A DNA stretch of 64,000 nt from a virus (lineage: Duplodnaviria > Heunggongvirae > Uroviricota > Caudoviricetes), in IMG/VR virus record IMGVR_UViG_2740892449_000004, one strand, 5' to 3'. Each line of letters begins with the position of its first letter. Positions within the stretch are counted from its first letter, which is position 1. Under the pieces are notes generated by a model that saw only the letters and a program-made list of their open reading frames with translations, ran no database searches and was not told the DNA's origin. Below are positions 14,762 to 43,045 of this stretch, piece by piece. A program made the translations under genes and the position numbers.

Positions 14762-17700
14762 ATGAACAAGCTATCTATGGGGGTGTTTCGCTGTTCAAGT
14801 GTCAGCGAAATATTGAAATACATTAGGGCAATAACATCTCACCGAGCGCCGATTAGATACGGCGTGGAAAAGGTGGAAGGCAAAAGCTATGACCGACTGC
14901 GCCGGGAGGCGAATCAGAAGGCGATAGATTTGCTTAATTCACTGGTGGACGGCGCGACACTGACAGATGAACAGCGCCAGATCCTGGCTGGGTACACCGG
15001 TGAAGGCGGCATTGGCGGGTCCGTCTCCGAATATTACACACCAAAGCCGATCGCTGAAGGTGTCTGGGAGATCATGAAGCTCTACGGCGCGGACGTAGGT
15101 AACACTCTGGAACCATCGGCGGGAACCGGCGTTTTTAATGAGACAAAACCGGTTGGTACGGTGATGACCGCGACTGAGATCAGCAGTGTTTCCGGTCGTA
15201 TAAACCAGCTGTTACACCCGGAAGACAGCGTACAGATTTCCCCGTTCGAACAACTGGCTGTAAGCACGCCTAACGATTCATTCGACCATGTTGTGGGTAA
15301 CGTTCCGTTCGGCGGTCGTGATAACACACGCAACATCGATAAGCCTTACGCAGAAGAAACGGACATGGGTTCTTACTTCATGCTCCGCATGCTGGACAAG
15401 ATAAAGCCAGGCGGATTCATGTGCGTGATTGTGCCGCCGTCCATTGTTTCAGGTTCAAACATGAAGCGGTTACGCCTGCGCCTATCCCGTAAAGCTGAAT
15501 TTCTTGGTGCCCACCGCTTGCCTACCGGTACTTTTGACGCAAACGGGACCAGTACAGTCGTTGATGTGGTGCTGATGCGCAAACATCCGGCAGAGATGGC
15601 TGAGAAAATCCCCCTGGTGGATGAAAGCACTCTTGAATCGGCAAATGTGCTTTGGCCAACGTTTATTTCTGGCAAGTGGTTTGAAAAGGATGGCCGCCGG
15701 TTTGTTCATGGCACCCAGGAAAAGGGCTTCCAGGGGCGTATTGAGGTTCGTGCCGACGGTCAGATTGATAACCAGGCTCTTAAAGCGAAGCTGATTCATC
15801 GTTTCGAAAGCCGTATCGACTGGTCTTTGCTCGATATGGCTGAACCGTCACCGACCGCAGACGTTGTTGATGAAGGGGAAATGCGCCTGATTAATGGCGT
15901 ATGGCAAAAATATGCTGGTGGTCGCTGGATTGAAGCTGATGCCGGGAAGGAACTTAAAATTGATGCTGCCAGTTATGGCGCGGATAGCTGGGAGGCTCTT
16001 CAGCGTAACCTGACTACAACAGAAGGCCGTCTCGGTATGACATTTACCCAGATGGCAAATGTCCGCGATAAGTACACCACATCAATCAGCGACGATATGG
16101 TGCAGCTGGTGGACTGGATTAACAGCCAGCCTGAAAAATACCGTGAACGCTTGTATCGTGGGGCGATGATTGGCCGGATGTTAATTGAATATCAGGATAT
16201 GAAGGCCGCCGGGCATAGTGCTGAACAAATCGAACAGCAGCGCCTTTCTCTGGTATCCCGTTTGCAGGCAGAGATTGACCGTTTTGGTAACCCTGGTCGC
16301 GGTCCGATAGCTAAATTATCGGGAAGCGGTGCGCGCGCCTGGTTTGCTTTCCGTGGTGCAATTAAGCTGGATGGCACTATTTCTGACGAGCTGACAGGAA
16401 AGCTGGTTACGCATGATTCCAGCGCCAGTTATGACTCCACCAGCTATCAGGACACCCTGCGTTATCTCTATAGCGATCTTACCCGCGATCCAATCCAGCT
16501 CGATGATTTCCGCCTTGCGTTTACCGGCGAATTGCCAGCCAGTGATGAAGAGTTGCTTAATTTATTGGCCAGCACTCCTGGTATTGCGGTTTCACCGTAT
16601 GGCGGGATTGTTCCGTTCGCCCGCGCCACCAGCGGCGACATTAACGAGATAGTGGCTCCAAAACAGGAATTCCTCGCCACGCTCCCCGACGGTCCAGTAA
16701 AGAACAACGTCCTTAATCAGCTGGCAGCGATCGAAGAGAAGCGCATCAAGACGCCAGCAGAGAATATCCGCTTTAAGCTCAATAGCCGTTGGTTCGACCG
16801 TTCCGTCATTCTGGAGTTTTTGCAGGAAAACGGCTATCCGGATCTGCGCTATGTGCAGTCAGTGCAGCTGGAAGGCGACGAAATGGTTTCTGACACCTAT
16901 CACGGTGGTGATGGCCTGTTCGTCGGGCACCGATACGGTGTCGTCCAGCGCAAGGATAAAGAAACAGGCGAGATCCGCTACGAGTGGGACCGTAAATCAG
17001 GTGAAAACGCGACCGGGTTCCCGGCACAGCTGGAAAAGTATCTCAATGGTGCGCGTATCGGTGGCAAAGATAGCGCGACGGCGAACGGCTACCGCGAGCA
17101 GATGGCACTGCTTGAGGACCAGTTCAATAAGTGGATCAAGACGCACGATCGCTACGATGAGCTGGTTGCCAAATACAACGATGTGTTCAATAGCAATATC
17201 CCGTATGAACACTCTGGCGATCCGCTTGGGTTGAAGGGATTAAGCGGTAAGCGACAGCCATTTGATTACCAGAATAGCGAGGTGCGCCGACTGTCCGAAG
17301 ATGGGCGCGGCATCCTGGGCTTCGGTACCGGGCTGGGTAAAACCACGACCGCGCTGGCGCTTGAGGCGTTCAACTATGAGAACGGTCGTTCCACCCGTAC
17401 TGCGTATGTAGTGCCTAAATCAGTGCTGGAAAACTGGTATTACGAAGCAAAAGAGTTCCTGAGTGAAGAGGCATTCAGTAACTACCTGTTCGTCGGTCTT
17501 GATGTGCTGATGGATGGCGATCAGATTCGCCAGGTGCCGGTGCTCAATGAGAACGGTAAACCTGTTCTTGGTACTGATGGCACTCCAGTTATGCGCGATG
17601 CTCTTAAGCTGGCAGATGAAGCCACTATCACGGCGCGGATGAACGCGATCCCGCACTCAAATTACCGTGCAGTCGTGTTTACCAAAGAACAATACGCCCG

Positions 17701-20700
17701 CATTCCGCTACGTGATGACACCGTAGATGAGCATGCACAGGATATGCTTTATGACTTCGTTGCCGCCGGGCGCGTAGCCAGCGCAATGGATTCCGATTCC
17801 CATCGCAAAGAGGCGGCGCGTCGCCGGGTATTGTCGGAGTATTCAGATACCGGTACCGAAAAAGCAGAGAAGTATCCGTACTTTGAGGATATGGGCTTCG
17901 ACAGCGTGATCGCCGACGAAGGCCACAACTACCGCAATAGCTATAAAAATGGTCGCGAAGCGTCACAACTGGCCTATCTGCCACCAGCGCGGTGGCGCAA
18001 TCGGCGCGGGATATGGCAATCAAAAACGCGTACCTGATGAAAAAGAATGGCGGGCGCGGGCCGGTTCTCCTGACTGCAACGCCAGTCGTTAACACCCCGA
18101 TCGATGCATACAACATGCTTTCTCATGTTCTGCCGAAGGAATACTGGCAGAAAATGGGGATCTACGGTCCTGATGACTTCGTTAAATTCTTCGGCAAGAC
18201 CAGGCTGGAAACGGTACAGAAAATCAGCGGTGAAGTTGAAGAAAAAATGGCGCTGGTGGGCTTTGAAAACCTTGATGCGCTGCGCGGCATATTCCATCGC
18301 TGGACAACGCTTAAAACGGCGGAAGACGTTAAGGATACCGTGGAGATCCCGGAACTGGACGAACACCAGCAGGATGCACCACTTACGGAAGAACAACTGG
18401 CGGCGTATGAAGAATTGCGTCAGCAGGCGGAAGCGGCAGCCAAAGCCAACAATGGCGTAACGACCTCGGTCAATGAAGACGGCGTGATTGAGCACGAGAA
18501 AGCCCGTCCGATCTTCTCAATAATCAGGGATATGGACCGCGTATGTACTGACATGGACCTGTACTATCGCAGGATCACCTATCGTTTCCTGCCGGAGTAC
18601 GCCGATGCGGTGCAGCAGCTGGCGGACAGTTTGCCTAAACAAGCCACCAGCGAAGACGACGACAGTGATGATTCGATCACGCAGCAATCGCAATACTCCC
18701 TGATAGATAAGGGCGAGTTTATTCAGTTGCAGGTACCGGAAGCATTTGAGCAGGAAGTGAATAAGCGCCTGGCCAAGTTTGGCATTGACGAACAGACCGT
18801 AACTCACCCCGTTACGCCCAAATACGCGAAGCTGATTGCCACGCTGAAGGAGTTTTTCCCGGAAGGTAAGCAAATCATCTTCACCGATGAAAAAACGCAA
18901 CACCAGAAGCTCAAGCGCATTATCTGCAATGCTCTTAACCTTGAACCTTCAAAGGTGGGGATCCTGAATGCTCAGACGGTTGCCGAGGCAGGTAAAACCG
19001 GTAAGAAACTGAAAGCGGTTAAACCGCCGAAAGAGCTACCGGATGAACCAACAGATGCACAGATAGCGAAATACAACGAGCAAATGGCTCTGTATGACGC
19101 CTATATCGCGCAGCAAAATGAAATGTCGCTGGGTGGGCTGGAAAAGATTGCTGCCGACTTCCAGGAGGGCCGGACTCCGATCATCATCTGCAACAAAAAG
19201 GCAGAGGTGGGTATCAACCTGCATCGAGGAACGACTGACATCCATCATCTGACGTTGCCATGGACACCAGCCAGTATCGCACAGCGTAACGGTCGCGGTG
19301 CCCGAGTTGGTTCCAACCGTGCAAGCGTTCGCGTTCACTACTACTGCGGCAAGGGTTCTTTCGATGAATACCGACTGAAGACGCTGAAGCGTAAAGCAGG
19401 CTGGATCTCCGATATCCTCCGCTCAGATAAGTCTGAAATGGAGAACGCCGACGCCAACGATATGATCGAAATGCAGATGTATACCGCTAAGGATGATGGC
19501 GAACGTCTGGCAATGATGCAGGTTCAAATGGATAAGGCGAAAGCCGCGCAACGCGCTCGCCAGAAAGAACAGGCTACTATCGACCTTCAGAACTACATCA
19601 AGGCGCAGCACGCAGCTGGCGAGGATGTGGAGGTACTTACCGCTGAATTAGAGCGAAGCAAAGCGGAACTTGAAAAGACCACCGCCGAGGTAGCTAAATT
19701 CAAACAGGCGGTAATGGCCAAAGCAGCTGATAACGCAGACTGGAAGGCCCGCTGGGGGAGCGTCCATCACACAGACCGTATGTTGTTAGCACAGTATCGC
19801 GCGTCGTTGAAAAACGCCATTCAGCGCAAGGCTAATATCTCTCAAGCCATCTCCCGCTATGAGAAATTATTGAACCGTACTCAGAAGGCCGCGACGGATA
19901 TCAAACGCCTGCGCCCGCTGGTGGAGGATGCAATAAATAAAGGCATTCTGGATGTTGATCCTGACCTGGTTAACCATGCGAGTGAGTTCCTTGTTATCGG
20001 CGATCGCTCATGGCGTGTAGGCCAATACTACGATTGTGCCGGTGATATCGTTCGCATTAAGTCGCTGGACTTCGACAGCCAGCGCGCAGACGTGGAGATC
20101 ATCTTTACCTTCAAAGGCACCAAATCGGGTAACTGGGATGTGAAGACGCTGGATAAACAGGTGGATGTAACTCCCGATGAAGATGCTGTTATGCAGAAAA
20201 TCAGTGGTGGCGTCTCCATCGCCGGGATTAACGACATCATTTCCTGTGACGATTTCTACCGTTTCCAGCAGCGCGGCATGATCAAAATAACTGACTCGTA
20301 CGGCGTTCAGACTACAGAGTCAGGCTATAGCATTGATTTTGTTGGTACCTATACGGACCCACTGAAGCATGCGGTTTACCCGGATCGCCGTGACGGCGCG
20401 CTGAAGTCGTCAATTGCAAAATGGGTGCTTGGTATGATGTCGGAAGGGAATAACCGCCAGATCCGTTCGGCAGAAACATTCCTGGTTGAATTGTTTGGCT
20501 CCAATTATGGCGATGTAATCGCGTCATACGGAGATACGCTATCCCCTGAAGCAATTCAGGAGAAAATAGCGGATGCGATCGCCAGAATGCCGGAAAAAAC
20601 AAGCCAGGGGGCTACTCGTAACGGGGATTCTGAACTTGAAGTCACCAATGCCATTTTCGGTACCAATGAGTTCCGGGCGTCAGATTATGAGATCACCACA

Positions 20701-21528
20701 GCACAGTTTGGCACCATTGGCATTTACAGCAATAAAGCCGAGATCAAGCAGGCAATGGACGCAGCAAGCGCGCGCATCGCAGCAGAACGGGAAGCCAATC
20801 TGAATCATGCAGTCGCCGCGCTGACTCAATCGTGGGTAACAGCAATCAGGGAGGCCGCCACCACAGGGAAAATCACACCTGCAATAGCGGATGTCGTAAA
20901 CGACGGCTCTAAATTTATGGATGCCTATCAAATGGATGCGGTGAAGTTGCCATCAGCCTATGGTCAACTCAGCTATCGCATGACCTACAACCTGGTATCA
21001 ATGTTTTCCGACCTTGCCATCCTTGGGCTGGTGGATCTTAACGAGGTTACGCCGGAATTGCTCAGCATGCGCAAGAATCATGTGGAGATATTGCAGAGAA
21101 TTAACACGGTTCTTGCCGGGCGCACCGATGAAGAGAAACAGGCCGACGCTGATCGGATAAACCTAGCCCTTGGCAACATCACGGAGGAAGAGATTGCCGC
21201 CAGAAACGAGAAACAAGAAGAGTTATCATCAATACAGGGTGATGCCACCAGCATAGCTCAGTCTCTTGGTCTGAATTATCGCGTATCCACCGCCGACCTG
21301 AAGATGATGTACGCACCAAAATTCGCCGCTGGCGAGGTATTTGGGCTTCAGGAAGCCTCAGGCATGAAAGGCGTTCTTTTCCGTGCGAAAGACGCAATCA
21401 AGGCGAAATTCGGCGCTCGCTGGCTGCCAGCGAAGGCGAAGAACAGCGATTTCCCGGGTAACTGGTGGATTATCGAGACAAAACACAACGTGGCGGACGT
21501 TCTGGCCGTCATCCAACAATACGCATAA
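14762..21528 (+). CDS. darB: DarB-like antirestriction protein (N6-adenine methyltransferase-like domain + DExH helicase), frame broken once
   Basis: Track ORFs 14762..18037 and 17992..21528; motifs VGNVPFGG, GFGTGLGKTTT (helicase motif I), ADEGHNYRN (DEGH), QRNGRGARVGS (motif VI); span 6767 nt = 3n+2, one added base gives 2255 codons. Confidence 0.85.
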
Positions 21529-21561
21529 CAGGAGCGCCCGGTTCGCCGGGCGTCGCATAAT

Positions 21562-22002
21562 ATGGCCACACTATCTGATACAATAAAACCGAATAAAACA
21601 TATCTTGAGGCGGTACTGCGTACGGCATTGTTAGGAAAGACAGAAGACGAATACGTTGATTTCTTCCTGTCAGGGCTACGCGGGCGATTACTGAAAAATC
21701 CCCGCCTGTACCGCAGCTATGGCCCATACTGGCCGGAAATTAAAAAATTATTACTGGAGCGCGGTTATGGTAATTTCGGTCGTCTCGTTGACCGTGACGT
21801 TCGCAAAATTTACCGTTATGACCGCCCGGCGCTAACACTCATAGCCGCGACGCTCTACAGCCAGGAGCGTTTTGATAATGGTCAGATATACTCAGCCTGG
21901 CATTTACTGCCAGTGCCTGAAGAAGTTGACGACCAGGACTATGAGTTTGAGTCTTACGATTTGGAAGTTGAAGCCTTGGCACAGGCTGGAGAGAAAACTT
22001 GA
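21562..22002 (+). CDS. Ulx-like protein (by position downstream of darB)
   Basis: ORF track 146 aa; 33 nt after darB stop; stop overlaps next start. Confidence 0.5.
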   Translation: MATLSDTIKPNKTYLEAVLRTALLGKTEDEYVDFFLSGLRGRLLKNPRLYRSYGPYWPEIKKLLLERGYGNFGRLVDRDVRKIYRYDRPALTLIAATLYSQERFDNGQIYSAWHLLPVPEEVDDQDYEFESYDLEVEALAQAGEKT

Positions 22003-22247
22003 AAAAGCGATACTACACAGTAAAGCATGGGACGCTACGAGCATTACAAGAGTTTGCTGATAAGCATAACGTTGAGGTGCGCAGGGAAGGGGGAAGTAAA
22101 GCTCTGCGCATGTACCGTCCGGACGGGAAATGGCGTACGGTCGTCGATTTCAAAACTAACAGCGTTCCCCAGGGCGTCCGCGACCGGGCATTCGAAGAAT
22201 GGGAGCAGATCATCATAGATAACGCATTGCTCCTGAATGCTGATTAA
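21999..22247 (+). CDS. Lxc/Bof-like C1 corepressor (by size and position)
   Basis: ORF track 82 aa; ATGA-type overlap with upstream gene; basic small protein. Confidence 0.45.
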   Translation: MKKRYYTVKHGTLRALQEFADKHNVEVRREGGSKALRMYRPDGKWRTVVDFKTNSVPQGVRDRAFEEWEQIIIDNALLLNAD

Positions 22248-22255
22248 ATCTTTGG

Positions 22256-22280
22256 CTATGCCTGGCTAAGCCAGGCATAG
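22256..22280. terminator. Hairpin between convergent lxc-like gene and RelA/SpoT gene
   Basis: Perfect 11-bp stem CTATGCCTGGC-TAA-GCCAGGCATAG between stops at 22247 and 22285; flanking T-runs weak. Confidence 0.45.
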
Positions 22281-22284
22281 GAAT

Positions 22285-23424
22285 TTACACAGTATCAATG
22301 TGTCTGCTAAGGAATCTCCCGAACTGATTTGTTGACCCAAAATAGTTAGGATAAGCCTTTTTAAGAGATTTAATGTTGTTAGTGGCAAGCAGCACCGCAA
22401 TTAATACTTCAGGATCCGCATCATCCTTATTAAGTTCCTGGAGGGCTTGTTCCGATTCTTTTTTCCTAAAAGGTTTCACAGAAACAAGAAACTTTCCAGT
22501 ATCCTTGCCATTTTTTGTTATGGCGTTTCTCATCCTCACCAAAAAGAATCCATTATGGTTTTTGGGCAGGCTTTTCTTTAGGTTTGCATCTGATGTCAGC
22601 TTCATTGCAAATGTATATGTACTTAATTTTGAGCGAACAGATAAAGCCTCCTCCAATGTTTTAAGCTCTGTTTGATAATTTTTGATGGTTTCATCATCAA
22701 GAATACAGGCACCTTCATCATGAGCAACTAGGCATCCAGAAAGATAAAAAAATCTTCTCCACTCAGGGTGACCTTCATTAGAAGTTTTCAGCTTAATATT
22801 TTCAAGTGTATCTATTATCTCCAGACTTGTTGCCCAAGCATGTTGGAGTTCTGTTCTTAGTTGTACTTCGATTTTAGTTTTACTCCACGGATTGTTACCG
22901 TTTTCTTCATCAAAACAACTATATGCAAGGTGAATGCCACTATATCCGCTTGGCTTTGGAGTTAAATAGTCATATTCCTTTAAGATTTTATGCTTGGAGC
23001 GACTTTTAACTAGTCGGTCTTTTAGTTTCTTTAGTTGTTCGATGTTTCTAACTATAGCTCTACATCCGCCAATATCCTGCATTCTAGTAAGGGCTATTGC
23101 ATTATTTGTTGCGCCGCCGTCAAGACTTGGACGCTCCAGTTTATCAATTATTGTGCTAAGTCTTTTTAGGCGTCTTGCAACAATAATCTTATTCTCTTTA
23201 TCAACTTTTTTTGCAGCCCTATCAAGATGATTTTTCATTAGCATCAATGGATATAAATGAAGCTCGCGGAAATTTTGAATCATTTTAATTGCTTCTTCTC
23301 GCTCTGCGCCCTCACAACCATGTCTAATTTTTCTGGCTGCTTTTTCTATTTGAGATTTCGAATATTTAAGTTCGCATTTTTGGCTTTGATATACTTCACT
23401 GCCCATTACTAACATCCAGTTCAA
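22285..23424 (-). CDS. RelA/SpoT-domain nucleotidyltransferase (toxSAS) fused to a C-terminal domain; CapRel-like candidate
   Basis: Motifs RLKRLSTIIDKL, DIGGCRAIV, SGYSGIHLAY, EVQLRTELQHAWATSLE; visibly AT-rich; TTG at 23424 or ATG at 23415/23406 as start. Confidence 0.8.
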   Translation of the reverse strand: MNWMLVMGSEVYQSQKCELKYSKSQIEKAARKIRHGCEGAEREEAIKMIQNFRELHLYPLMLMKNHLDRAAKKVDKENKIIVARRLKRLSTIIDKLERPSLDGGATNNAIALTRMQDIGGCRAIVRNIEQLKKLKDRLVKSRSKHKILKEYDYLTPKPSGYSGIHLAYSCFDEENGNNPWSKTKIEVQLRTELQHAWATSLEIIDTLENIKLKTSNEGHPEWRRFFYLSGCLVAHDEGACILDDETIKNYQTELKTLEEALSVRSKLSTYTFAMKLTSDANLKKSLPKNHNGFFLVRMRNAITKNGKDTGKFLVSVKPFRKKESEQALQELNKDDADPEVLIAVLLATNNIKSLKKAYPNYFGSTNQFGRFLSRHIDTV

Positions 23425-23518
23425 ATGATTAATGTGTTGTTACATATAATAACAAATCAAGCTAGAAATCAATGGGTATGAAAATGAAACATACCCATAA
23501 TGTTACCTAACGTAACTA

Positions 23519-24160
23519 TTATAAATAGTTCTGTTTACCTGTTAATTCTCCTTGCGGCACTTGTTTTTGCGTTAGTGTTTGAGTTCCGCGAATTATGTTA
23601 ATCAGGGGACTTAGTAATGATGGTTCCTGATGGGCCTCAACTTCTCCAGCCATTGCCCTGATGTAGTCGGCGCTGGCAACGTTGTTGTATTCCGTCGCAA
23701 AGCAACATAGTAACGTCAGAACATGTTCTGTCGTTATTTCGCTCCAGTTGATGTTGAAAAATTCATCGCCTTTTTTATCGTGTTCGGAATCGAAGATGCT
23801 TTGGTGAAGGATGTATTTGCCGGATTCCTTGCGCGGTAACTTGATCGCTTTCTGGCGTTCCAATTCCTTGTAAATCTGCATTGCTTCAATCAGTACCGGT
23901 CTGCCGTTCATGAAGGGATCACGCAACCTTACACGCTGGCCAACTCGACCGGTAATAAAGCTGTTTTCCTCTTCCACCAGCACGATAAAACCCTTTTCCT
24001 CTTTTTCTCGCAATTCGCGCAGCAGCTGGAGTTCCATATCGCGGCGGCGTTCAGGGTAGCTGGTCCGCTCAGCCATTATCAGCTCATTGTTGATCCATGC
24101 AGCAGTCATTGACGCCGGTTTGCCGACGCTCATTGAAACAACGCATATTTTCTTATCCAT
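23519..24160 (-). CDS. Hypothetical protein, Mat-like by position
   Basis: ORF track 23519..24187 (GTG); preferred ATG at 24160 after AGGGG; between ref and the cargo gene. Confidence 0.5.
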   Translation of the reverse strand: MDKKICVVSMSVGKPASMTAAWINNELIMAERTSYPERRRDMELQLLRELREKEEKGFIVLVEEENSFITGRVGQRVRLRDPFMNGRPVLIEAMQIYKELERQKAIKLPRKESGKYILHQSIFDSEHDKKGDEFFNINWSEITTEHVLTLLCCFATEYNNVASADYIRAMAGEVEAHQEPSLLSPLINIIRGTQTLTQKQVPQGELTGKQNYL

Positions 24161-24348
24161 AGCGCCCCTACAAAAAAGAAAAGCCACCAGCGGCGGCTTA
24201 GCAATACAACTGAAGGTAGCGCCCGGTACTCAGACTGTGCCGTCCATGGAATATTTGAAAAGGGATCCATCCGTACCGGGCGTGTGATGATTCTGACTCA
24301 AGTCACTTGTCAGTTGTCAATCATTTAAGATTAAAAATAATATATTTA

Positions 24349-24908
24349 TTAGTGCATGATGTTTGCCATTTCATAGGCGTCAGCCAGCAACTCCATCTCT
24401 GACTTGTTCAACAAGGTGAATTCTTTCTTGCCTCCTACCACGCCATCTGCATGAACAGGGACCAGCCAAGGGTATTTTTCTCTTACTTCAGCCGGTGCTG
24501 CATGCTGGTGGTGCCATCTGCAAAGGGGCAATTGCTTTTTGTGACAACCCGGCGCGGTACGACCGGAGATATGGTGCAGAGACACCTCTTCAGATATTAC
24601 TCCATGCATGTAGCAGGCAATGCAGGGGAGAGTGCCAAGAGCATTGGCGATGCGCCGTTCCTCCGCCGTTGGTGTTCTCCCTTCAAGCCACGAGATTTTA
24701 TTTTTACCGCGCTTTTCCGCGTTTTGCTGGCTGGTGGGCGCTCTTTCTGTTTAGCGATACGGCGGTCGATAGTATCCCGCATTATCTGATATTGAGATTC
24801 TCGCCAGACCGGATCAGCCAACTTCTCCCGTTGCCGAGCGATCGCTCGTTCTCTGGCTGCCTTCTGCCACTCGCGGCGCTGTTCAAGTTTTTGTTCGATT
24901 GTTTTCAT
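24349..24908 (-). CDS. ref: Ref-like HNH endonuclease, frame broken once
   Basis: Track ORFs 24597..24908 (basic N-terminus MKTIEQKLEQ) and 24349..24609 (Cys/His HNH-like SLHHISGRTAPGCHKK...CRWHH); span 560 nt = 3n+2. Confidence 0.65.
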
Positions 24909-33810: not shown

Positions 33811-34200
33811 TTAAATAACCGGACAATCATCAAATTCCCCACTTCGGGCATCATTGATGACATGAGTGATCACACCAAAAACAGCATTACTGCCCGTGTA
33901 TCCATCGTCATCTACTGGTAACGCCTCTTTCTTCCCGGTGCTTAAGTCCTCCAGGTGCTGGCGCGGATACTTCCTGTATCTCTTTATGCGATATTCACCC
34001 TCCATAGCGCACACAAGCAGAGAACCATCAACCGGAGTAAGCGAGGAATCAACCACCAGCAAAGCACCCTGCAATATTCCCTCACGGTGATGGCTATCAG
34101 CTGCCCGCATGAAGTAGGTCGCTGAAGGATGTCTAATTATCTGCTGATCAAGAGAAATTCGGCTTTCAACATAATCCGCCGCAGGAGAAGGGAAGCCCAT
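33811..34200 (-). CDS. humD: HumD, UmuD-like SOS mutagenesis protein
   Basis: 129 aa with LexA/UmuD-type C-terminal domain; LexA box just upstream. Confidence 0.75.
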   Translation of the reverse strand: MGFPSPAADYVESRISLDQQIIRHPSATYFMRAADSHHREGILQGALLVVDSSLTPVDGSLLVCAMEGEYRIKRYRKYPRQHLEDLSTGKKEALPVDDDGYTGSNAVFGVITHVINDARSGEFDDCPVI

Positions 34201-34218
34201 AGCGTTTTACCTCAATGA

Positions 34219-34238
34219 TACTGTTTATTCATACAGTA
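34219..34238. promoter_or_regulatory. LexA (SOS) box upstream of humD
   Basis: TACTGTTTATTCATACAGTA, CTGT-N8-ACAG palindrome. Confidence 0.6.
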
Positions 34239-34295
34239 TACATTGAAAAGGCATAGTTTGTGAAAGCGGGGTTTGTAGGCGCGCCACGCTGGGGG

Positions 34296-34574
34296 CTAAT
34301 CACATTTCTCCCCCATCTTGCCGTTATTTTTTTGGTGCATCCTCGTTCTGATACACCGGATCGCTCCCTTTTGGCAACTGGAGCTTAACTGCCGGTAGTG
34401 CCGTAGCCGTTCCATGAAATAGGCGCGCAGGTTTTCCGGTTGCTCACGGGCCACCTGCTCTGCAATCACAGGTATATTCAGCCGTTCTTTGTAAGCAACG
34501 CCGCTGGCGGCAAGGTCTACGTTCACCTTGTCTCGCTCTTCCTGGCTTTTAGCTGCTATATTTCGATCTGACAC
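34296..34574 (-). CDS. hot: Hot, DNA polymerase III theta (HolE) homolog
   Basis: Residues [43 protein letters not shown] align with E. coli HolE; C-terminus diverges. Confidence 0.75.
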
Positions 34575-34606
34575 AAGAAACCTCCAGGAGTTAGTGGATC
34601 AGGCAC

Positions 34607-34957
34607 ATGCACAATAACGTTCTCAATGTTAGCCGTTCAATTCAGACAATCAGAGACTGCACCAGTGTGGTGGCATCAATCCCATTGCGAAACAGCATAG
34701 ACGAACTGCAAATTCGTGTATTGAATCCGAATCAGGCTAATAAGCAATTGCGCTTTATTTTGACGCTGAAAAGTGAAACAGAGGGGATAAAGCACAGCGT
34801 AAAAGTGTTTTCTGAGGCCATTCTGCTTAATGGGAAGCTCCGGCATCTGGTAAGGCCAGAACGTCAATATCCTGACGTCCTGGCGCGTGAAAAAGACCTT
34901 CTTTCTGAAGTTCAGGATAGGGTGATCGATTTCGTCAAATGCTATCCCCTGCATTGA
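34607..34957 (+). CDS. Hypothetical protein
   Basis: ORF track 116 aa; lone plus-strand ORF in a minus-strand block; weak RBS. Confidence 0.35.
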   Translation: MHNNVLNVSRSIQTIRDCTSVVASIPLRNSIDELQIRVLNPNQANKQLRFILTLKSETEGIKHSVKVFSEAILLNGKLRHLVRPERQYPDVLAREKDLLSEVQDRVIDFVKCYPLH

Positions 34958-35193
34958 GGGCAGGTGTTCCCTTCCGCAAAGTAGGGAAAATTGCTATCAA
35001 GTTCATCACACCATCTGCGATGGTCGTAGCACCAAAACGCCTCCCACGGTGCACGGAAATACTTCATCCACCAGGACACTCGATCAGGTATATCTGCTGG
35101 TGGCAGTTCTTCTGGCAATAATTTGCCTGATAATTCCCTTTCCGCCCGCGACAGCATTTTTTTTGAGGCTCGCGTTCTCTTTTTCAAGCTCAT
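34942..35193 (-). CDS. Small Cys-rich hypothetical protein
   Basis: ORF track 83 aa; C-terminal C..C...C..C. Confidence 0.3.
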   Translation of the reverse strand: MSLKKRTRASKKMLSRAERELSGKLLPEELPPADIPDRVSWWMKYFRAPWEAFWCYDHRRWCDELDSNFPYFAEGNTCPQCRG

Positions 35194-35210
35194 CTACGCG
35201 CACCTGTAAT

Positions 35211-35861
35211 TCAGCTTTCGTTGGCATGGTCCACCTCATGCTTTTCAGCCACCAGCGGCAATAAAGCCCTGGCCATCTTATGAACCAATAGTGCATCAAT
35301 AATGCCAAGCGTATGCCCCGGCTTAATGTTTAATGCCGCCTCAAGGCGACACCTTTCCAGGCCACTTTTCTCGGCTTGTTTATGATGATCTGGTGTAATA
35401 ACGTCGCCCAAAACACGGCTAATTCTTTCTCGTAATTGCTGGGTGCCAGCACACTTGATCGCTGTATCGTGGAGACGGTTAACCAGTTCGCGATAAACAT
35501 GCGGCTTAATTCGGATACGTTCACCGGTGACGCCCTTTCCTGGTGCTGGCACCGAACTATCCGGAATATCCGGATAGTTGCCAGCCTCGTAAGCTACCCG
35601 CAGCCAGTGCATGAATGTTTCAGTGGACACACAACCACAGTCCACATCGATTTTCCCGCGTTGCTGTTCCAGCCAATGCTCAAAATTCAATCTACACGTA
35701 TTACTTTCATGTTGCTCTTTTTGTCTCAAGGCCAGCATCTGCTGGGCTATTTCCAATACTTCATCTGCCGTATATCCAGCACCGTGACCATACATTTCGA
35801 TACGGGAAATAATCTCTGATATGCGCTCTTCAGTGATTCTGGTCATTTCTTTTTGCGCCAT
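35211..35861 (-). CDS. Hypothetical protein
   Basis: ORF track 216 aa. Confidence 0.5.
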   Translation of the reverse strand: MAQKEMTRITEERISEIISRIEMYGHGAGYTADEVLEIAQQMLALRQKEQHESNTCRLNFEHWLEQQRGKIDVDCGCVSTETFMHWLRVAYEAGNYPDIPDSSVPAPGKGVTGERIRIKPHVYRELVNRLHDTAIKCAGTQQLRERISRVLGDVITPDHHKQAEKSGLERCRLEAALNIKPGHTLGIIDALLVHKMARALLPLVAEKHEVDHANES

Positions 35862-36217
35862 TTCTTTTCACATTCCTTAGTCCATTTTTCAATGTTCATT
35901 TTGGCAATATCAGTCATTCCATCACCTAAGAAATACTTTTTCCGGTACGTCTTGCACTTAAACCACACTACAACAGCCACCAACCAGAAAATAAAAGGCC
36001 ATACAGCAATACCAACTCCAGCCGCGATAAAGCCCAATAGCCATAAATGAAGCTCTCCAACTTCTGTTTGCGGCAATATTCTTAAAGAATTAAACAGCAG
36101 ACTGAAGGAATGGTCGTATGCATTGGCGGTATAAGACATGCAATCCATATAATTAAAGTCATAGCCTGCGGCTGCCGCCCATAATGGGCGGTCAAGAAAA
36201 TGTTTTAGTGTCATCAT
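35843..36217 (-). CDS. Hypothetical membrane protein
   Basis: ORF track 124 aa; hydrophobic helices; Lys-rich C-terminus. Confidence 0.5.
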   Translation of the reverse strand: MMTLKHFLDRPLWAAAAGYDFNYMDCMSYTANAYDHSFSLLFNSLRILPQTEVGELHLWLLGFIAAGVGIAVWPFIFWLVAVVVWFKCKTYRKKYFLGDGMTDIAKMNIEKWTKECEKKWRKKK

Positions 36218-36223
36218 ATAAAT

Positions 36224-36517
36224 TTAAGGTTCAGACCAGTTATCTTCAATAGCAATGCTTAATCTTTGTAGCCATTCTGCTAATTTCAGCATTGCTTCTC
36301 TTTCGCTTAAACCACGAGGAAAATCATCAAGCGAAATTGTTGGCTTGAAGCCCCCGTAATTATCCATTTCAACAGTCAGATTTTGCTCCAGAACGGTATT
36401 TCTTACGCGGCTATTGTGCCGAAGCAAATATACTGAACGTGATTTATTGGTTTTGTGGTCGAACGTATATTCGGTAAGTATCATCTGACTTCCGCCATGA
36501 TTATTACCGCGCCACAT
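36224..36517 (-). CDS. Hypothetical protein
   Basis: ORF track 97 aa. Confidence 0.45.
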   Translation of the reverse strand: MWRGNNHGGSQMILTEYTFDHKTNKSRSVYLLRHNSRVRNTVLEQNLTVEMDNYGGFKPTISLDDFPRGLSEREAMLKLAEWLQRLSIAIEDNWSEP

Positions 36518-36540
36518 AATTACTCCGTGTTAATTGAAAT

Positions 36541-36843
36541 TTAGCTATTAATCTTCACTTTTATCGCGAACACCTTTACCGGTTTATCACCGAAGTGTGG
36601 ATGTGTGATTGTTTTTATTTCATATCCGTTATACGGGACGTCAATTCTGCGACTGAAGTCTTCGCGCTTCGGATATCCCTTTGTGATAATCAGGCGGTCA
36701 TACTCGCGGAACATAATTCGCTTATTCCAGTAGTCATTACACAGGCGATACTCTTCCGTTTTCTCTCCGCGAATCATGGCATCGAAGTATTCACCTTTAA
36801 CGGCAAGTTGCAGGTTAGCCATTACCTCACCTCCAGTCTCCAT
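36541..36843 (-). CDS. Hypothetical protein
   Basis: ORF track 100 aa. Confidence 0.45.
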   Translation of the reverse strand: METGGEVMANLQLAVKGEYFDAMIRGEKTEEYRLCNDYWNKRIMFREYDRLIITKGYPKREDFSRRIDVPYNGYEIKTITHPHFGDKPVKVFAIKVKINS

Positions 36844-37082
36844 ACCGCCTGACCAATCCGGCTGGCATGGGTATCTTTGGATACTGTTCCGTCTTTAGCC
36901 AGCTCCATAAGAATTTTGCGCAAATCTGCCGAACGCCATTCTTCATCAGGAAATTCCTTCTCCATTGCCAACCGCAGATTCCAGGTTGCCATCCTGAATG
37001 GATATTCCCCGCCGAGAGCTTTATCTTGCAGGGCAGCCCGGGAACGCATCACCTGCAAAACCTTCTCTTTTACATCCATCAT
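36822..37082 (-). CDS. Hypothetical protein
   Basis: ORF track 36822..37226; preferred ATG at 37082 after strong AGGAGG RBS, abutting upstream stop. Confidence 0.45.
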   Translation of the reverse strand: MMDVKEKVLQVMRSRAALQDKALGGEYPFRMATWNLRLAMEKEFPDEEWRSADLRKILMELAKDGTVSKDTHASRIGQAVWRLEVR

Positions 37083-37936
37083 TTCGCCTCCTGCGGCGGT
37101 TCTGGTAGCGGCATCCAGAACAAGGCGTTCCCTAACCACGATAAAGTGCCGTCGCTCAACTCCACGTATTCCCCTTGTACCTGTCCTGCCATATACTCGC
37201 CGTGCTTTGAATAAATTAAAATCCAATCATCTTGAGGGGGCATTCGCTCACTACAGCTTATCCAACCATCCGGAGTTACCGGAGAGTTGCCTGCCAGTCT
37301 ACGCAAAACAGCCTTAACAGCCTCAATACGGTCATCATCGTAACTTTCCGCCGTATCTATGCGGTCGAGCATGATGATTGCGTTATCAATATCAGGATTG
37401 CCGGTCCACTCATTACCGCGATTGGATTCGGCAGCCTGGTTGCCGCGTACTGGTTGATTGTCGGCTTTACCCAGTCTGTCGTCGCTGCATGAATGCCCTT
37501 CCAGCCAGGCCAATGCTTGTCGCATGAAATACGCAATATGTTTTCCGTGGTAATCGTCTTCATCGATGTGAAAAGCGATACTACGAATGTATTCAATTGC
37601 GTTTTCAATGGCCTCTAACGCTATCGGCGCTGGCGGAGTGGTATATAGTTTTCGACATTTGTATATCCAACCGGCATGGTCAGGCGTGTCTGTAAAACGC
37701 AAATCGTCTTCGTAGCACTCACGACTACGTTCTTTCCATTCCGTCCACGGAACACCGCTATTCCAGGTGGGGCGAGTGCAGGACTGATACAGAACAGGCT
37801 CTGCTTCCAGCGATGCCAGCACGATACGCGCCAGTTCTTCCGCTTCTTCTGCTGGCAGTACAACGTTGCTATCAGGTCCGTATGTTTCGCGCCACTGCTT
37901 GATTGTCAGCAGTCGCTCTTTGGTAATAGTGATCAT
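37079..37936 (-). CDS. Hypothetical protein with DUF551-like C-terminus
   Basis: ORF track 285 aa; C-terminal DGWISCSERMPPQDDWILIY...WMPLPEPP. Confidence 0.55.
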   Translation of the reverse strand: MITITKERLLTIKQWRETYGPDSNVVLPAEEAEELARIVLASLEAEPVLYQSCTRPTWNSGVPWTEWKERSRECYEDDLRFTDTPDHAGWIYKCRKLYTTPPAPIALEAIENAIEYIRSIAFHIDEDDYHGKHIAYFMRQALAWLEGHSCSDDRLGKADNQPVRGNQAAESNRGNEWTGNPDIDNAIIMLDRIDTAESYDDDRIEAVKAVLRRLAGNSPVTPDGWISCSERMPPQDDWILIYSKHGEYMAGQVQGEYVELSDGTLSWLGNALFWMPLPEPPQEAK

Positions 37937-38012
37937 GCCGCGTTTCCTTCTTTCTTATTAACAATTACACCGTCATATATTTCATTAAGGTGCCCTCTCA
38001 ACTCCATGCGCC

Positions 38013-38447
38013 TTAATGCAGATAACATGTAATCGCATTCAACCTGCTTATTCCCAATAAAAGGTTTATCTTCAGGGTTACCCCAACAGCAATTACCCTT
38101 GGGCCACCCATGTACTTTCCGTACTCTTCCGTTAACAACGTGAAGTAATCCCCAGCCAGGTGGTAAATCCTCAATTGAAATAATTCCCGCTCACTAATAA
38201 AGAATCGCCAGTCGCCCATTCCAAGAGACGGATTTTTACGAAAACGCTTTTTTCTATCTGCCAACAAATCAGCACGAGAACACTTCGCCTCTATCAGGCA
38301 TGATGCTGAATTTCTGAACCCCATAGCATCTGGCTGTTCTCCGGTACTGGTTACAGCTATAAAGCGGTCATGAAAACAAACCTTGAACCCGTTGCGCTTA
38401 AGGAACTTGTACGCAATCTGACAGAGTTCGCGGTGTGTTAACGCCAT
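38013..38447 (-). CDS. Putative PD-(D/E)xK-type nuclease
   Basis: ORF track 38013..38519; preferred ATG at 38447 after AAGGAGAG RBS; motif GEQPD...LIEAKCSRADL. Confidence 0.45.
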   Translation of the reverse strand: MALTHRELCQIAYKFLKRNGFKVCFHDRFIAVTSTGEQPDAMGFRNSASCLIEAKCSRADLLADRKKRFRKNPSLGMGDWRFFISERELFQLRIYHLAGDYFTLLTEEYGKYMGGPRVIAVGVTLKINLLLGISRLNAITCYLH

Positions 38448-38448
38448 A

Positions 38449-38637
38449 TCACTCTCCTTTAGTGCGCAAATGGTTTTTCCAGCGGTTTTGCGCCGCGCTG
38501 GGCTTTTTGCAAAAACCACAATCCATCATCCCGTAATATTTCATCAACCCCATCCGTCGGTTGCTGAGTCTCACCCACTGCCAGACGCCAGGAGCGTTTC
38601 TACGAACTAACAGAATCTTTGCTTTACGGTTTTTCAT
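38449..38637 (-). CDS. Small basic ORF, one of two tandem near-duplicates
   Basis: ORF track 62 aa starting MKNRKAK; a second MKNRKAK ORF (below the track size cut-off) begins near 38813. Confidence 0.3.
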   Translation of the reverse strand: MKNRKAKILLVRRNAPGVWQWVRLSNRRMGLMKYYGMMDCGFCKKPSAAQNRWKNHLRTKGE

Positions 38638-38982
38638 CTTACTGCGTACCCTTTCTTCCGCCTGTTCTGTGACGCAGTAGGCTTACGCTTTGCGGCAAAA
38701 GCCACCTGACCAAATGGATGGAGTACCGCTATCTTATGGTTGCTAATAACCAGCTCCACCACACGCACAGGTCGCTGTAAAAAAAGTCGTTTTGCCTTAC
38801 GGTTTTTCATCGCTTTGCTCTCCTGCGTCTCTTTGCTACTCGTCGTGCCGCTGCAATACCGGTATGGCGGCGCTTTGGTGCTGGGGTGATGTTGTCAGCC
38901 ATCAGGACCTGTGGCTTTGCAATTAGCGCAGAAGCCCAAAAACGAGTCGGGTACGGTAACAAGCCAATACATGCCACACGCA

Positions 38983-39471
38983 CTACTCACCTCCGTTGAT
39001 GCGAATGCCTGTTGCAATGCTGTTTATGATGCTGTCAGTGCATGGGGTAGAAAGCTGGGCATCTCCAGCAATTTTCATAACATCAACATCTGCATATCGA
39101 ATACCGAGGTGTATCAGACCGGCTATACCTGACTTAAGCCGAGCATTTTCCATAAACAGATCCTTTGCCCGCTGTTTTTCTGCCTCAAGCTCAACGCGCA
39201 ACTTCCCTACCGTTAGCGCAATATCCTCGTTCTCCTGGTCGCGGCGTTTGATGTATTGCTGGTTTCTTTCCCGTTCATCCAGAAGCGCCAGCACGGTTTC
39301 TGGTCCGGTCAGAAATTTGAAGGCGTTGAGCGCATCAATATCCACACCGTAATCTTTAAGTTCCTGTTCACTTAACAAATCATCATCAGCTGGCAACATT
39401 AACAGGCGTTCCATTGCTGGAATTGCACGTTCCGCCGCCTCACGCAGTGCCTGGTAATTAATTTCGCTCAC
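38983..39471 (-). CDS. Ead/Ea22-like modular protein
   Basis: N-terminal INYQALREAAERA shared with the 40399..41136 ORF; coiled coil. Confidence 0.5.
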   Translation of the reverse strand: MSEINYQALREAAERAIPAMERLLMLPADDDLLSEQELKDYGVDIDALNAFKFLTGPETVLALLDERERNQQYIKRRDQENEDIALTVGKLRVELEAEKQRAKDLFMENARLKSGIAGLIHLGIRYADVDVMKIAGDAQLSTPCTDSIINSIATGIRINGGE

Positions 39472-40115
39472 TGGTTGCCTCCTTTGCGAAGCTCAGCGGC
39501 GAAGGCTACTGCGTGATCATGATGTTCAAGTGTGTATGCACACTCCGCAAACATCTCCACGCCCTGCGCCCGTACTTCAGCCAGGAAAGCATCGGTGGCT
39601 GGCATATTTCCTGTTGCCTTCATGGCCTCCAAAATAACCAGAACGCCATCTCGCCCAACCACCTCAGCGATAACCTCGGTGTTGTCGCCAACAACATCGC
39701 AGAATGCCTGAACTGCCTTACGAGCCAGCTCATTCTCCACTGCCAGCGCCGTGCGATTACCCTCCAGCTCTGCAATGCGCTGTTTTGCGGCATCCAGTTC
39801 AATCGACAATTTTTCCAACTGCTCTTGATGCTTCTTGTATTCCTGATATGCGTGCCAAGACTGACCTTTGCGCACACTATCAGTGATATCAGTAATCTGT
39901 TCTGGTGTTAGCGTGGTCAGTGGCTGTGATGGGAAAATAAGCACTTTCCCGGAATCCCAATCAAAACCAGCGTGAATTGACTGAACCTCAACTGAAGGTG
40001 TTGAACCAATGCTGCCAGGCGAATGAACAACGATTGTTACATCCATATCGCGACGATGGCTGTGGTTGTTGGACAAAATACGATTCACCAACTCAGAAAA
40101 TTTGGAAAATTTCAT
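39468..40115 (-). CDS. Ead/Ea22-like modular protein
   Basis: C-terminal PATDAFLAEVRAQG...LRKGGNQ shared with neighbours. Confidence 0.5.
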   Translation of the reverse strand: MKFSKFSELVNRILSNNHSHRRDMDVTIVVHSPGSIGSTPSVEVQSIHAGFDWDSGKVLIFPSQPLTTLTPEQITDITDSVRKGQSWHAYQEYKKHQEQLEKLSIELDAAKQRIAELEGNRTALAVENELARKAVQAFCDVVGDNTEVIAEVVGRDGVLVILEAMKATGNMPATDAFLAEVRAQGVEMFAECAYTLEHHDHAVAFAAELRKGGNQ

Positions 40116-40435
40116 GCTGATTCCCCTTTCTCTGCTCTCTCCTGTCGGAACATCACTATCATCAGGTCGCCTTTTGTCGCTATCCTGGCTGTTGTACCTG
40201 GTTCAATGCGGCTAAGCTCAAATGCGTCATAGAACGCTTCTAATGCCTTCTGGCGTAGTTCCTGTTTGCGCCGTTTTTTCCACTGTTTTAGGAAAATGGA
40301 ACCCAGCCATCGCCATGTACGGGACATGATGTAAAGCCAACCGAGAAGTGCCAGACCGGTATTTAGGAGCGTATCGATCGTTATTGTCGTGTCGATATTC
40401 ACTGGCTGCTTCCTTTGCGAATCTGTTCCGCCCAT
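40112..40435 (-). CDS. Small membrane-anchored hypothetical protein
   Basis: ORF track 107 aa; one hydrophobic helix. Confidence 0.4.
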   Translation of the reverse strand: MGGTDSQRKQPVNIDTTITIDTLLNTGLALLGWLYIMSRTWRWLGSIFLKQWKKRRKQELRQKALEAFYDAFELSRIEPGTTARIATKGDLMIVMFRQERAEKGESA

Positions 40436-41136
40436 TCTTCAAGGGATTTCTCCGCATATTCACCAGACAGGCCATCAATCGGATGCGCTTCATTAGCCAA
40501 CTCTTCTTTCGCTGACAAAATCATGCGTGTAACGTCGAAAACTTCACGCAAAGACTTATTGATAAATCCGTGATTGAACGCAGCAGCAAGACGGCTGGCG
40601 GTATAGTTAATCCCCTCGTTGCGTGCTTCCGCACGAATTTCAGCCAGAAAAGCATCGGTAGCTGGAGTTTCGCTGTGGTGTAGGGCATCGTTGATAATCA
40701 TTGCAGCAACACCAGCCTGCCCTGCATCCGTGACCGACACATGCTCAAGAGTTACGGCCATTGCGTGTTTCAGCCCGGCGTTCTCTGCCACCAGCGCCGC
40801 GAGCTTAGTCTCAAGCGGTGCTATTCGGCACATAGCATCAATATTTGTGTCCTCCAGGCGCTTAATTTCACCAAGTAGCGCCAGTGCAACCTTTGGGTTG
40901 AATGCGGCAACATAACGAGCGTTGTTCTCTGCGTTTTTCAGCCCATCAAAGCCGGTCCATTTGATAACATCTTCACATCGTTTATCACCGGGCGTATGCA
41001 CCGCATACGTACCAGTACCCGGCGAAATAAATGCGACCCATTCGCCCTGTGTTGCCTGTTTTGCTATCTCACGCAGTGCCCGGTAATTAATTTTGCTCAC
41101 TGGCTGCCTCCTTTGCGGAGTTGCGCTTCGATGCAC
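40399..41136 (-). CDS. Ead/Ea22-like modular protein
   Basis: KINYRALREIAKQAT and PATDAFLAEIRAEA modules; C-terminal IRKGSSQ. Confidence 0.5.
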   Translation of the reverse strand: MHRSATPQRRQPVSKINYRALREIAKQATQGEWVAFISPGTGTYAVHTPGDKRCEDVIKWTGFDGLKNAENNARYVAAFNPKVALALLGEIKRLEDTNIDAMCRIAPLETKLAALVAENAGLKHAMAVTLEHVSVTDAGQAGVAAMIINDALHHSETPATDAFLAEIRAEARNEGINYTASRLAAAFNHGFINKSLREVFDVTRMILSAKEELANEAHPIDGLSGEYAEKSLEEWAEQIRKGSSQ

Positions 41137-41336
41137 GAAAAAAAAGACTCCCGAGTATGACTGTTAAGAGCTGGTGCGAACGCCGCGTTAAGAACGGCAG
41201 CATCACAGCCGTCATCAATATAGAGCGCAATTTTTTTCTCCAGGCGCGCTTTGGCTTCCTGCAACTGCATACCCCGGCACGCACGCGGGATATAATCAGC
41301 AATTTGAGCGATAGCTTTTTCGTTCTGTTTAAACAT
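41097..41336 (-). CDS. Small hypothetical protein sharing the LRKGGSQ tail
   Basis: ORF track 79 aa. Confidence 0.4.
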   Translation of the reverse strand: MFKQNEKAIAQIADYIPRACRGMQLQEAKARLEKKIALYIDDGCDAAVLNAAFAPALNSHTRESFFSCIEAQLRKGGSQ

Positions 41337-41532
41337 GCTTCACCTCGATAGGCTTGATGGTGTCTAACAGCAGTCGACGGCGCGTATTTTCTGCAAAGTG
41401 GCGGCGTCCGGTATCTTTGTGGTAAAACTCATTTTTGCCGACGACCCACATCCGCTCTGTTTGGTGCAGTTTTTTTACCTGCGGACCGTCTTTGGTGATC
41501 ACGGTGCCGGTATGGGTTTTTACGATTGTCAT
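41329..41532 (-). CDS. Small hypothetical protein
   Basis: ORF track 67 aa. Confidence 0.4.
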   Translation of the reverse strand: MTIVKTHTGTVITKDGPQVKKLHQTERMWVVGKNEFYHKDTGRRHFAENTRRRLLLDTIKPIEVKHV

Positions 41533-41615
41533 GCCACTACCTATTCGAACAGATGAACGAGACAGGCTGATGCTCGTCCACCTGAAAAACTGACGATTTG
41601 ATGCATACTCACGGT

Positions 41616-42344
41616 TTATTCCTGAATGCGCTTAAACTCGATTACCCACACCCAGGGATTAGCGTTCCAGCTTTCTTCACCATAGATGGATTCCCACAGG
41701 CGCTGGAACGCAACCTTGGCCATTGCGAAATCCCCCTTGGGAGTAAGGAATGTTCCCGGGTGATCAGGAAGCAAACTTCCAGCAGGCGGAACGCCCTCAG
41801 CCCTTGCATCGCATTCGCTGATATCGTTCAACCGTTCAACGCGCACGTTGGTAATTTCCAACAGAATGCGTGATGCCCATCGCGGCATGTGAATTGATGG
41901 ACGCCACCCACCATCAAACTTTTCATTCACAGTGTGAGGTTTCCAGTCGGCATCATCGGGTATCGACCATAAGCCGTAATCACCAGGTTTTTGCTCGCAA
42001 CTGGCCCGATAAATCCTTGCTGCGTTCTTCTCATCGCCACGACAAAGGTTGTCGTTCCAGTCCACACTGCAACCATCCTCATTGCCTAATATCGCCCATG
42101 TTTCACGAACCCAAATTCGATCGCCGACGATACCAAAGGGGCAATTGAAAACACTGCTTACACCATCAGCCCCGTACCACTGAAAACCTGCACCAATTTC
42201 CCTAACCATCACTGGTGCTTCTGGACCAACTTCCGCAGGCTGATTTTTCATTATCCGCCGCGTCTGCGTTTTCCTTCCTTCGAGGATGGCTCGGACCATC
42301 TCATCGTTGAAAATCATGCCGCGCTCTTTCACTTCGCCTTTCAT
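41616..42344 (-). CDS. Hypothetical protein
   Basis: ORF track 242 aa. Confidence 0.5.
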   Translation of the reverse strand: MKGEVKERGMIFNDEMVRAILEGRKTQTRRIMKNQPAEVGPEAPVMVREIGAGFQWYGADGVSSVFNCPFGIVGDRIWVRETWAILGNEDGCSVDWNDNLCRGDEKNAARIYRASCEQKPGDYGLWSIPDDADWKPHTVNEKFDGGWRPSIHMPRWASRILLEITNVRVERLNDISECDARAEGVPPAGSLLPDHPGTFLTPKGDFAMAKVAFQRLWESIYGEESWNANPWVWVIEFKRIQE

Positions 42345-42522
42345 GCATCCCCCTTACCCATGCGCGACGATGCCGCCAAAAGTGATAGAGAACAGCCAGA
42401 AATAGATCGCGGCCATAATGATTTTGAATGCCGTGTTCATATTTTCAGCTCCTGTGATTGATTAGATACATGCCGCGCCTTGCGGCATGTTTTTATTTTC
42501 ACTTTCCCTGCTTTAAAAATCA

Positions 42523-42539
42523 AGATTTATTAGAGCAAT
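42523..42539. promoter_or_regulatory. C1 operator-like 17-mer
   Basis: AGATTTATTAGAGCAAT, 16/17; overlaps the stop of the 42539..43045 gene. Confidence 0.55.
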
Positions 42540-43045
42540 TACTGCTGATGAAGAAGCGCATTTTCATACTCCCTGACCATTAACGTAAGCACGCCGTGTC
42601 TCCTGAAAACACGCGCCACTTCAATCTTATCTTCCAGCGCGAACGCAATTTTACTTAGACCAATTTTCTTAAGGAGATCAATCTTTGCTGGGCCGTCATT
42701 TCTGTCATCGGTGGCAGGGCGCATAGATAGCAAAGGCTCAGCCCCGTTTGTTACGTACTTCCGCAGCCAAGCTCGTGTTTTATCCCTTGCGATCTCACAG
42801 CGCCCGGTTACAAACCAGACCGTGTAAACGTTAAATAACTGGCGCACAATATCAATAACTGGAGTTATGGGAGTATCAGTGTCACAGGCGAGATTAAACT
42901 CGTTCCAGTCCTTTGTTAATGCACCTTTACCTGGTGGCGGAAGCAAATGCAGTCTGTCTTCCGTTGCCTCCGATATTGTTCCATCAATATCGACTATGAC
43001 GATATACGGACGTTCCTGGTGTGCGTGTTTATTGAAAATACTCAA
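42539..43045 (-). CDS. HAD-superfamily phosphatase-like protein
   Basis: N-terminal motif I VIVDIDGTI (DxDGT). Confidence 0.55.
   Translation of the reverse strand: MSIFNKHAHQERPYIVIVDIDGTISEATEDRLHLLPPPGKGALTKDWNEFNLACDTDTPITPVIDIVRQLFNVYTVWFVTGRCEIARDKTRAWLRKYVTNGAEPLLSMRPATDDRNDGPAKIDLLKKIGLSKIAFALEDKIEVARVFRRHGVLTLMVREYENALLHQQ

Follow-up and report, generated by a model that had tools for sequence, protein, structure and literature searches.

Background

The fused toxin-antitoxin CapRelSJ46 is among the best-characterised bacterial sensors of phage infection. Two Nature papers and two crystal structures deal with exactly this sequence.

Zhang et al. (2022, PMC9712102) found that its N-terminal fragment is toxic and that the C-terminal fragment rescues in trans, while the full-length protein, made from its native promoter, protects Escherichia coli against SECPhi27, T2, T4, and others. 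That the protection requires a low multiplicity of infection points to abortive infection; the substitution Y155A abolishes protection, and the protein stays uncleaved during infection. Phage escape mutants carry changes in the major capsid protein Gp57 (L114P and I115F), and Gp57 of SECPhi27 directly binds the C-terminal pseudo-zinc-finger domain (with an affinity determined by ITC) and boosts tRNA pyrophosphorylation. Once activated, CapRelSJ46 inhibits translation and not transcription. Residues 240-268 and 288-366 are protected in HDX upon Gp57 binding, L280 and L307 are required for trigger binding, and Y352A and Y355A, like mutations in the surface on which the YXXY motif docks, cause constitutive toxicity (all PMC9712102). 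A second trigger, Gp54 of phage Bas11, is unrelated to Gp57 and is bound by the same sensor domain (PMC11578894, Zhang et al. 2024).

CapRelEbc of Enterobacter chengduensis and CapRelKp of Klebsiella pneumoniae belong to the same family and share the mechanism of CapRelSJ46 (PMC9712102). CapRelEbc is 70% identical to CapRelSJ46 overall (PMC9712102), but the C-terminal regions are, by figures taken from the literature, just 47% identical, and the phage specificity is different. According to PMC13423816, CapRelEbc senses T7 Gp0.4 complexed with FtsZ. [quoted passage not shown] In PhRel/ATphRel and FaRel2/ATfaRel2 toxin and antitoxin are separate genes, whereas in CapRelSJ46 they form one polypeptide. 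The small alarmone synthetases RelQ, RelP, YwaC, and YjbM are ~210-250 aa long and have no fused antitoxin, in contrast to CapRelSJ46 with its extra ~170-aa C-terminus.

Identity of the Gene

The window (the whole stretch of 64,000 nucleotides analysed here) carries on its minus strand a gene that is CapRelSJ46 itself, not a homologue of it, and that is already known. In a search of all PDB chain sequences, the best matches of the protein read from the ATG at position 23406 were 7ZTB_A (373 aa, E=1.6e-250) and 9ERV_A (372 aa), with zero mismatches to either over the whole length. Here 7ZTB_A is CapRelSJ46 alone and, judging from PMC11578894, 9ERV_A is CapRelSJ46 complexed with Bas11 Gp54.

The DNA agrees with this. 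Between positions 21500-24377 and Salmonella phage SJ46 (NC_031129, 55604-58481), an ungapped alignment of 2878 nt shows 5 mismatches (99.8% identity), of which just one falls inside capRel, a synonymous change at 23371 (GAG to GAA, codon 12, Glu12). SJ46 encodes the same amino acid sequence (gp058, YP_009293515) between the same flanks, ulx and lxc on one side and mat on the other, with 99.8% DNA identity over 2.9 kb. It differs from the window in that Tn1721 is inserted just past mat, whereas the window runs on into ref, c8, and cre as P1 does.

A preliminary description, made from the letters alone, had placed the gene in the CapRel class of fused toxSAS proteins, and rightly so, since 373 of 373 residues are identical to the CapRelSJ46 structure chains; the alignment to CapRel proteins that it proposed as a check gives 100% identity to CapRelSJ46 over 373 aa. 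It had also suggested a possible homologue of a system from a P1-like Salmonella phage-plasmid. The link to that system was sound, but "homologue" was not the right word for the same protein, and the novelty of the gene was overrated, the exact protein having already been characterised. Results of the toxicity, structure, and plaque-assay checks that it recommended are published for the CapRelSJ46 sequence (PMC9712102, PMC11578894). The gene thus has little value as a discovery and serves instead as a positive control, in which a reader of raw sequence picked out a real defence gene and assigned it to the right class.

The features that define CapRel are all found in this copy. Residue mapping recovers every CapRelSJ46 residue that PMC9712102 and PMC11578894 name, Y155, R79, R116, L280, L307, and Y352/Y355 among them: there is an N-terminal toxSYNTH domain with the G-loop tyrosine (Y155 in SGYSGIH), and a fused C-terminal pseudo-zinc-finger domain (no residue of the last 180 aa differs from the solved structure) with YPNY at residues 352-355. 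It is a single gene, and because its neighbours lxc and mat are conserved P1 genes, which persist in elements with an empty slot or another cargo, no separate antitoxin gene is adjacent. PADLOC 2.0 has no model named CapRel; its candidate family PDC-S33 matches the protein over its full length (E=5e-87).

Users of public records will meet the gene under the names "GTP pyrophosphokinase" or "(p)ppGpp synthetase," labels derived from homology. Taken at face value, these annotations would make the protein a small alarmone synthetase, producing (p)ppGpp or ppApp and acting via the stringent response, rather than a tRNA-modifying toxin. The RelA_SpoT domain and weak matches to RelQ, YwaC, and YjbM (E about 1e-7 to 1e-4) fit that description, and Lai and Cooper took the sister allele relAP1 in the same way (PMC10865808). 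However, the "(p)ppGpp synthetase" label is contradicted by the published biochemistry of CapRelSJ46: the identical protein pyrophosphorylates tRNA when triggered, and it is translation, not transcription, that it inhibits (PMC9712102). The alarmone reading of relAP1 came from an alignment only (PMC10865808), and the resemblance of the window gene to the small alarmone synthetases consists of weak local matches alone (E 1.8e-7 to 2e-4, residues ~65-200). We consider an alarmone synthetase very improbable.

[quoted passage not shown] For this we draw on sequence identity, domain content, key residues, and genomic context as observed in the window, and on the literature for enzymology, structures, triggers, and protection.

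Start Codon, Domains, and Composition

An ORF scan of the window reports 22285-23424 on the minus strand as an ORF of 379 aa with a TTG start, and the preliminary description had taken this as the extent of the gene. The gene itself stands, but its length does not: the first in-frame ATG, at 23406, opens a protein of 373 aa (MGSEVYQ...), and the CDS with its TAA stop occupies 22285-23406 on the minus strand, with 100% identity to 7ZTB_A over the full length. GenBank and RefSeq annotate the capRel CDS as 1122 nt in both phage SJ46 and plasmid p1303_95, the PDB chains begin with MGSEVY (7ZTB) and GSEVY (9ERV), and the published residue numbers (R79, R116, Y155, L280, L307, Y352, Y355) fit the ATG start only. 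Because annotations, structures, and numbering agree, the ATG at 23406 is almost certainly where translation truly begins. When the ORF scan is set against the same three sources, the six extra codons of the maximal, TTG-started ORF (23407-23424, minus strand) are probably untranslated. No frameshift or stop is visible in the capRel copy of the window.

The translation contains all four of the RelA/SpoT motifs on which the preliminary description had based its domain call (RLKRLSTIIDKL, DIGGCRAIV, SGYSGIHLAY, and EVQLRTELQHAWATSLE), and a profile search bears the call out with a Pfam RelA_SpoT match (PF04607, E=3.1e-13). The match covers residues 85-199 in the 379-aa numbering and scores 50.4 bits, against a gathering cut-off of 27 bits for this family. 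In the 373-aa numbering, this toxSYNTH core comprises residues 79-193 (22828-23172, minus strand) and includes R79, R116, and Y155; Y155, the G-loop tyrosine on which activity depends, as seen from the loss of phage protection in Y155A (PMC9712102), is encoded at 22942-22944 on the minus strand.

For the C-terminal ~170 aa, a Pfam search of the translation found no other domain. By correspondence with CapRelSJ46, the antitoxin and sensor region comprises residues 240-373 (22288-22689, minus strand; the boundary at residue 240 is approximate), with anchor helices, the pseudo-zinc-finger domain, and the C-terminal helix. Residue mapping puts the YXXY autoinhibition motif, Y352-P-N-Y355, at 22342-22353 on the minus strand (Y352A and Y355A data in PMC9712102).

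The gene had been called AT-rich by eye, and computation agrees: the GC content of the capRel CDS is 37.0%, against a window mean of 48.6% and flanks of 51.6% (left) and 46.4% (right). When all 1122-nt segments, taken in 50-nt steps across the whole stretch, are ranked by GC content (standard deviation 2.9%), capRel falls in the lowest 0.5%, and the 15 lowest-ranking segments all overlap it, making it the most AT-rich part of the window.

Mechanism of Action

Published work on the identical protein carries over directly to the window gene and gives the following course of events. At rest, the protein has its C-terminal pseudo-zinc-finger domain folded back on the N-terminal toxSYNTH domain, with the YXXY motif blocking the ATP site. 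[quoted passage not shown] The open enzyme then pyrophosphorylates tRNAs, translation halts, and the phage cycle is not completed. In related toxSAS enzymes such as FaRel2, the modified position is the 3' CCA end of the tRNA.

Flanking Hairpins and Transcription

From the sequence, we infer that the capRel copy of the window would be expressed from its own promoter in a lysogen. A candidate sigma-70-like promoter, TTAACA-16-TATAAT (11/12, a consensus match alone), lies at 23518-23545 on the minus strand and overlaps the mat stop codon; sigma-70-like matches in this region show no excess over shuffled sequence. The window has 15 sites resembling the operator of the P1 C1 repressor, versus none at 22250-24900, and the sequence offers no evidence of direct C1 control of capRel.

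Hairpins had been described on both sides of the gene, and both were recovered by a hairpin search. One is a perfect 12-bp palindrome at 22256-22280. It lies where lxc (stop at 22247) and capRel (stop at 22285) converge and is likely to serve the two genes as a shared transcription stop. The other, with a 9-bp stem, lies at 23472-23498 on the minus strand, in the upstream leader of capRel and downstream of the mat stop. A terminator scan called neither of them, as both lack the T-run that it looks for.

The lxc-mat Slot

Megablast of the window against P1 shows that homology ends at 22252, five bases past the lxc stop, and resumes at 23564. The 1311-bp segment between these points (22253-23563) replaces the res-mod region of P1 (P1 3424-9745), where the counterpart is a 6.3-kb res-mod::IS5, and capRel therefore occupies the slot of the EcoP1I type III restriction-modification system of P1. 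The slot has already been named "RD-1" (Venturini 2019, PMC6906374; Lai and Cooper 2024, PMC10865808), and for this reason the hotspot itself is not new; to our knowledge, its contents have not yet been read as a catalogue of defence genes.

The right boundary of the segment falls within the last ~15 codons of mat. This 3' end of mat (23519-23563) is part of the variable segment, and its nucleotides differ between cargo classes; the annotated length of Mat is 213 aa in the window, against 250 aa in P1.

The slot also raises the question of plasmid addiction. Venturini et al. count res-mod among the addiction systems of P1 (PMC6906374), and a toxin-antitoxin in its place on a low-copy plasmid prophage could be mainly a module for post-segregational killing, with phage defence as a laboratory side-effect. 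However, toxin and antitoxin are here one polypeptide, which is neither cleaved nor degraded on infection (PMC9712102), so that the differential decay required for post-segregational killing does not arise. Moreover, the element already has phd/doc, and the lxc-mat slot is empty in many P1-like elements. A primary role in addiction is scarcely credible to us, and nothing in the sequence of the window speaks against CapRelSJ46 as an abortive-infection sensor.

With Lxc as the probe, we collected 80 P1-like loci from IMG/VR (L009-L088), 73 of which have both lxc and mat. The lxc-mat content of these 73 loci falls into 13 classes plus an empty state, the latter (~100 nt) found at 8 loci. CapRelSJ46 occupies the slot at 6 loci, with 100% amino acid identity, and a second CapRel allele (74% amino acid identity) at 3, with one more locus at which mat was not found. 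A stand-alone SIR2_2 protein of ~434 aa (PADLOC PDC-S25 / ThsA-like) is present at 11 + 2 loci, a DUF2971 protein (PADLOC PDC-S31) at 10, EcoP1I res-mod identical to that of P1 at 7, and a PIN_12 protein, also present in phage JL22, at 6. GNAT acetyltransferases account for 4 + 3 loci, and three further cargos are found at 4 loci each: JukA with an HTH protein and an ANT/KilAC protein; YaaC-like with nucleoside-deoxyribosyltransferase-like proteins, for which PADLOC gave no match; and an AraC-HTH and EAL pair. A 132-aa protein with a lipoprotein-like N-terminus, matched by neither Pfam nor PADLOC, occurs at a single locus.

All slot cargos are low in GC (32-43%), and each cargo class has its own distinct GC-rich hairpin right after lxc. 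As mildly useful context, RD-1 takes about a dozen alternative AT-rich cargos, and capRel is one of them. Several of the others are uncharacterised, and several have no PADLOC match and could be defence genes. The slot of OP279344 ("P1 del res del mod") holds the AraC-HTH and EAL gene pair, as in phage Ro157c2YLVW.

A Second CapRel Allele

The second CapRel allele (IMG/VR loci L012, L036, and L068) has the same position between lxc and mat, the same length, and the same architecture as CapRelSJ46, and it keeps the G-loop tyrosine and the YPNY motif. Overall amino acid identity to CapRelSJ46 is 74%, but in residues 240-340, the sensor, it is 58-61%, versus 77-85% elsewhere; the second allele probably recognises other triggers than CapRelSJ46 does. 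Phage vB_EcoM-673R5 (L003, 2300-3410) carries the second allele in the same slot with two frameshifts, and the gene is annotated there as two ORFs. Since the copies in L012, L036, and L068 are intact, these breaks may be sequencing errors.

This allele has a published history under another name. Carriage of blaTEM-116* has a fitness cost for which relAP1, a gene of a P1-like phage, is both necessary and sufficient (Lai and Cooper 2024, PMC10865808). The gene was read as an unregulated ppGpp synthetase, and CapRel is unmentioned in that paper (PMC10865808); the two names occur together in no paper of the library that we searched. By sequence match, relAP1 is the second, 74%-identical CapRel allele of the RD-1 slot. 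We had considered whether the window gene might itself be relAP1, and rejected this: the 90-nt MAGE recombineering oligo for relAP1 matches L012 exactly, whereas only 63 of its 90 nt are matched in the window gene.

The phenotype published for relAP1 is thus a fitness cost with blaTEM-116*, as opposed to phage defence for CapRelSJ46. A CapRel-style account of that cost, in which a fused toxin-antitoxin would be partially triggered by a non-phage protein, offers a testable lead. That the CapRelSJ46 copy is likewise partly triggered by non-phage cell proteins, such as a TEM beta-lactamase variant, is by analogy conceivable and, in our estimate, unlikely; if it were true, capRel would burden co-resident plasmid genes with fitness costs.

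Host Element and Distribution

The window encodes Cre, C1, Phd/Doc, DarB, Ulx, Lxc, Mat, and Ref, together with three tRNA genes, and is collinear with phage P1 and with the E. coli plasmid p1303_95, the closest backbone found (97.7% over 34 kb). It is a P1-like phage-plasmid. For positions 34000-44000, no PLSDB record matches throughout, and the best matches cover 84-88%; as the rest is 97.7% identical to p1303_95, the full window represents a mosaic P1-like element that is absent as such from PLSDB. Compared with p1303_95 and with all PLSDB records, a block of small minus-strand genes at 36523-41100 is mosaic; the genes of the equivalent block in p1303_95 are annotated as ead/Ea22-like, DUF4752, and DUF551.

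The capRel region (1321 nt) is present in full length at 99.8-100% identity in 21 PLSDB plasmids, and at 100% in eight of them. Most of these carriers, whose hosts are E. coli, Salmonella, and Klebsiella, are non-mobilisable replicons of ~95 kb. Among 5426 complete E. coli genomes, 14 contain capRel DNA, again at 99.8-100% identity. A preprint (10.1101/2025.09.12.675607) counts CapRel as one of the defence systems that are common in E. coli P1-like phage-plasmids. Damaged copies of capRelSJ46 occur in two plasmid records, AP024695 and NZ_JCATIJ010000003; one of the two matches the first 677 nt of the query only, and the other is split by an IS1-family element.

Two minor observations concern other genes of the window. 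In darB (14762-21528), a 1-nt deletion at ~17983 (CCC to CC, relative to P1, p1303_95, and SJ46) splits the 2255-aa anti-restriction gene into ORFs at 14762-18037 and 17992-21528; either the gene is a true pseudogene or the break is a sequencing error in a homopolymer. The three tRNA genes, all on the minus strand at 55820-55895 and 57896-58049, comprise one with anticodon CAT, a tRNA-Thr(TGT), and a tRNA-Asn(GTT). A similar set of tRNA genes is known from phage P1, and its presence here is mildly notable in that the cargo toxin of this element attacks tRNAs.
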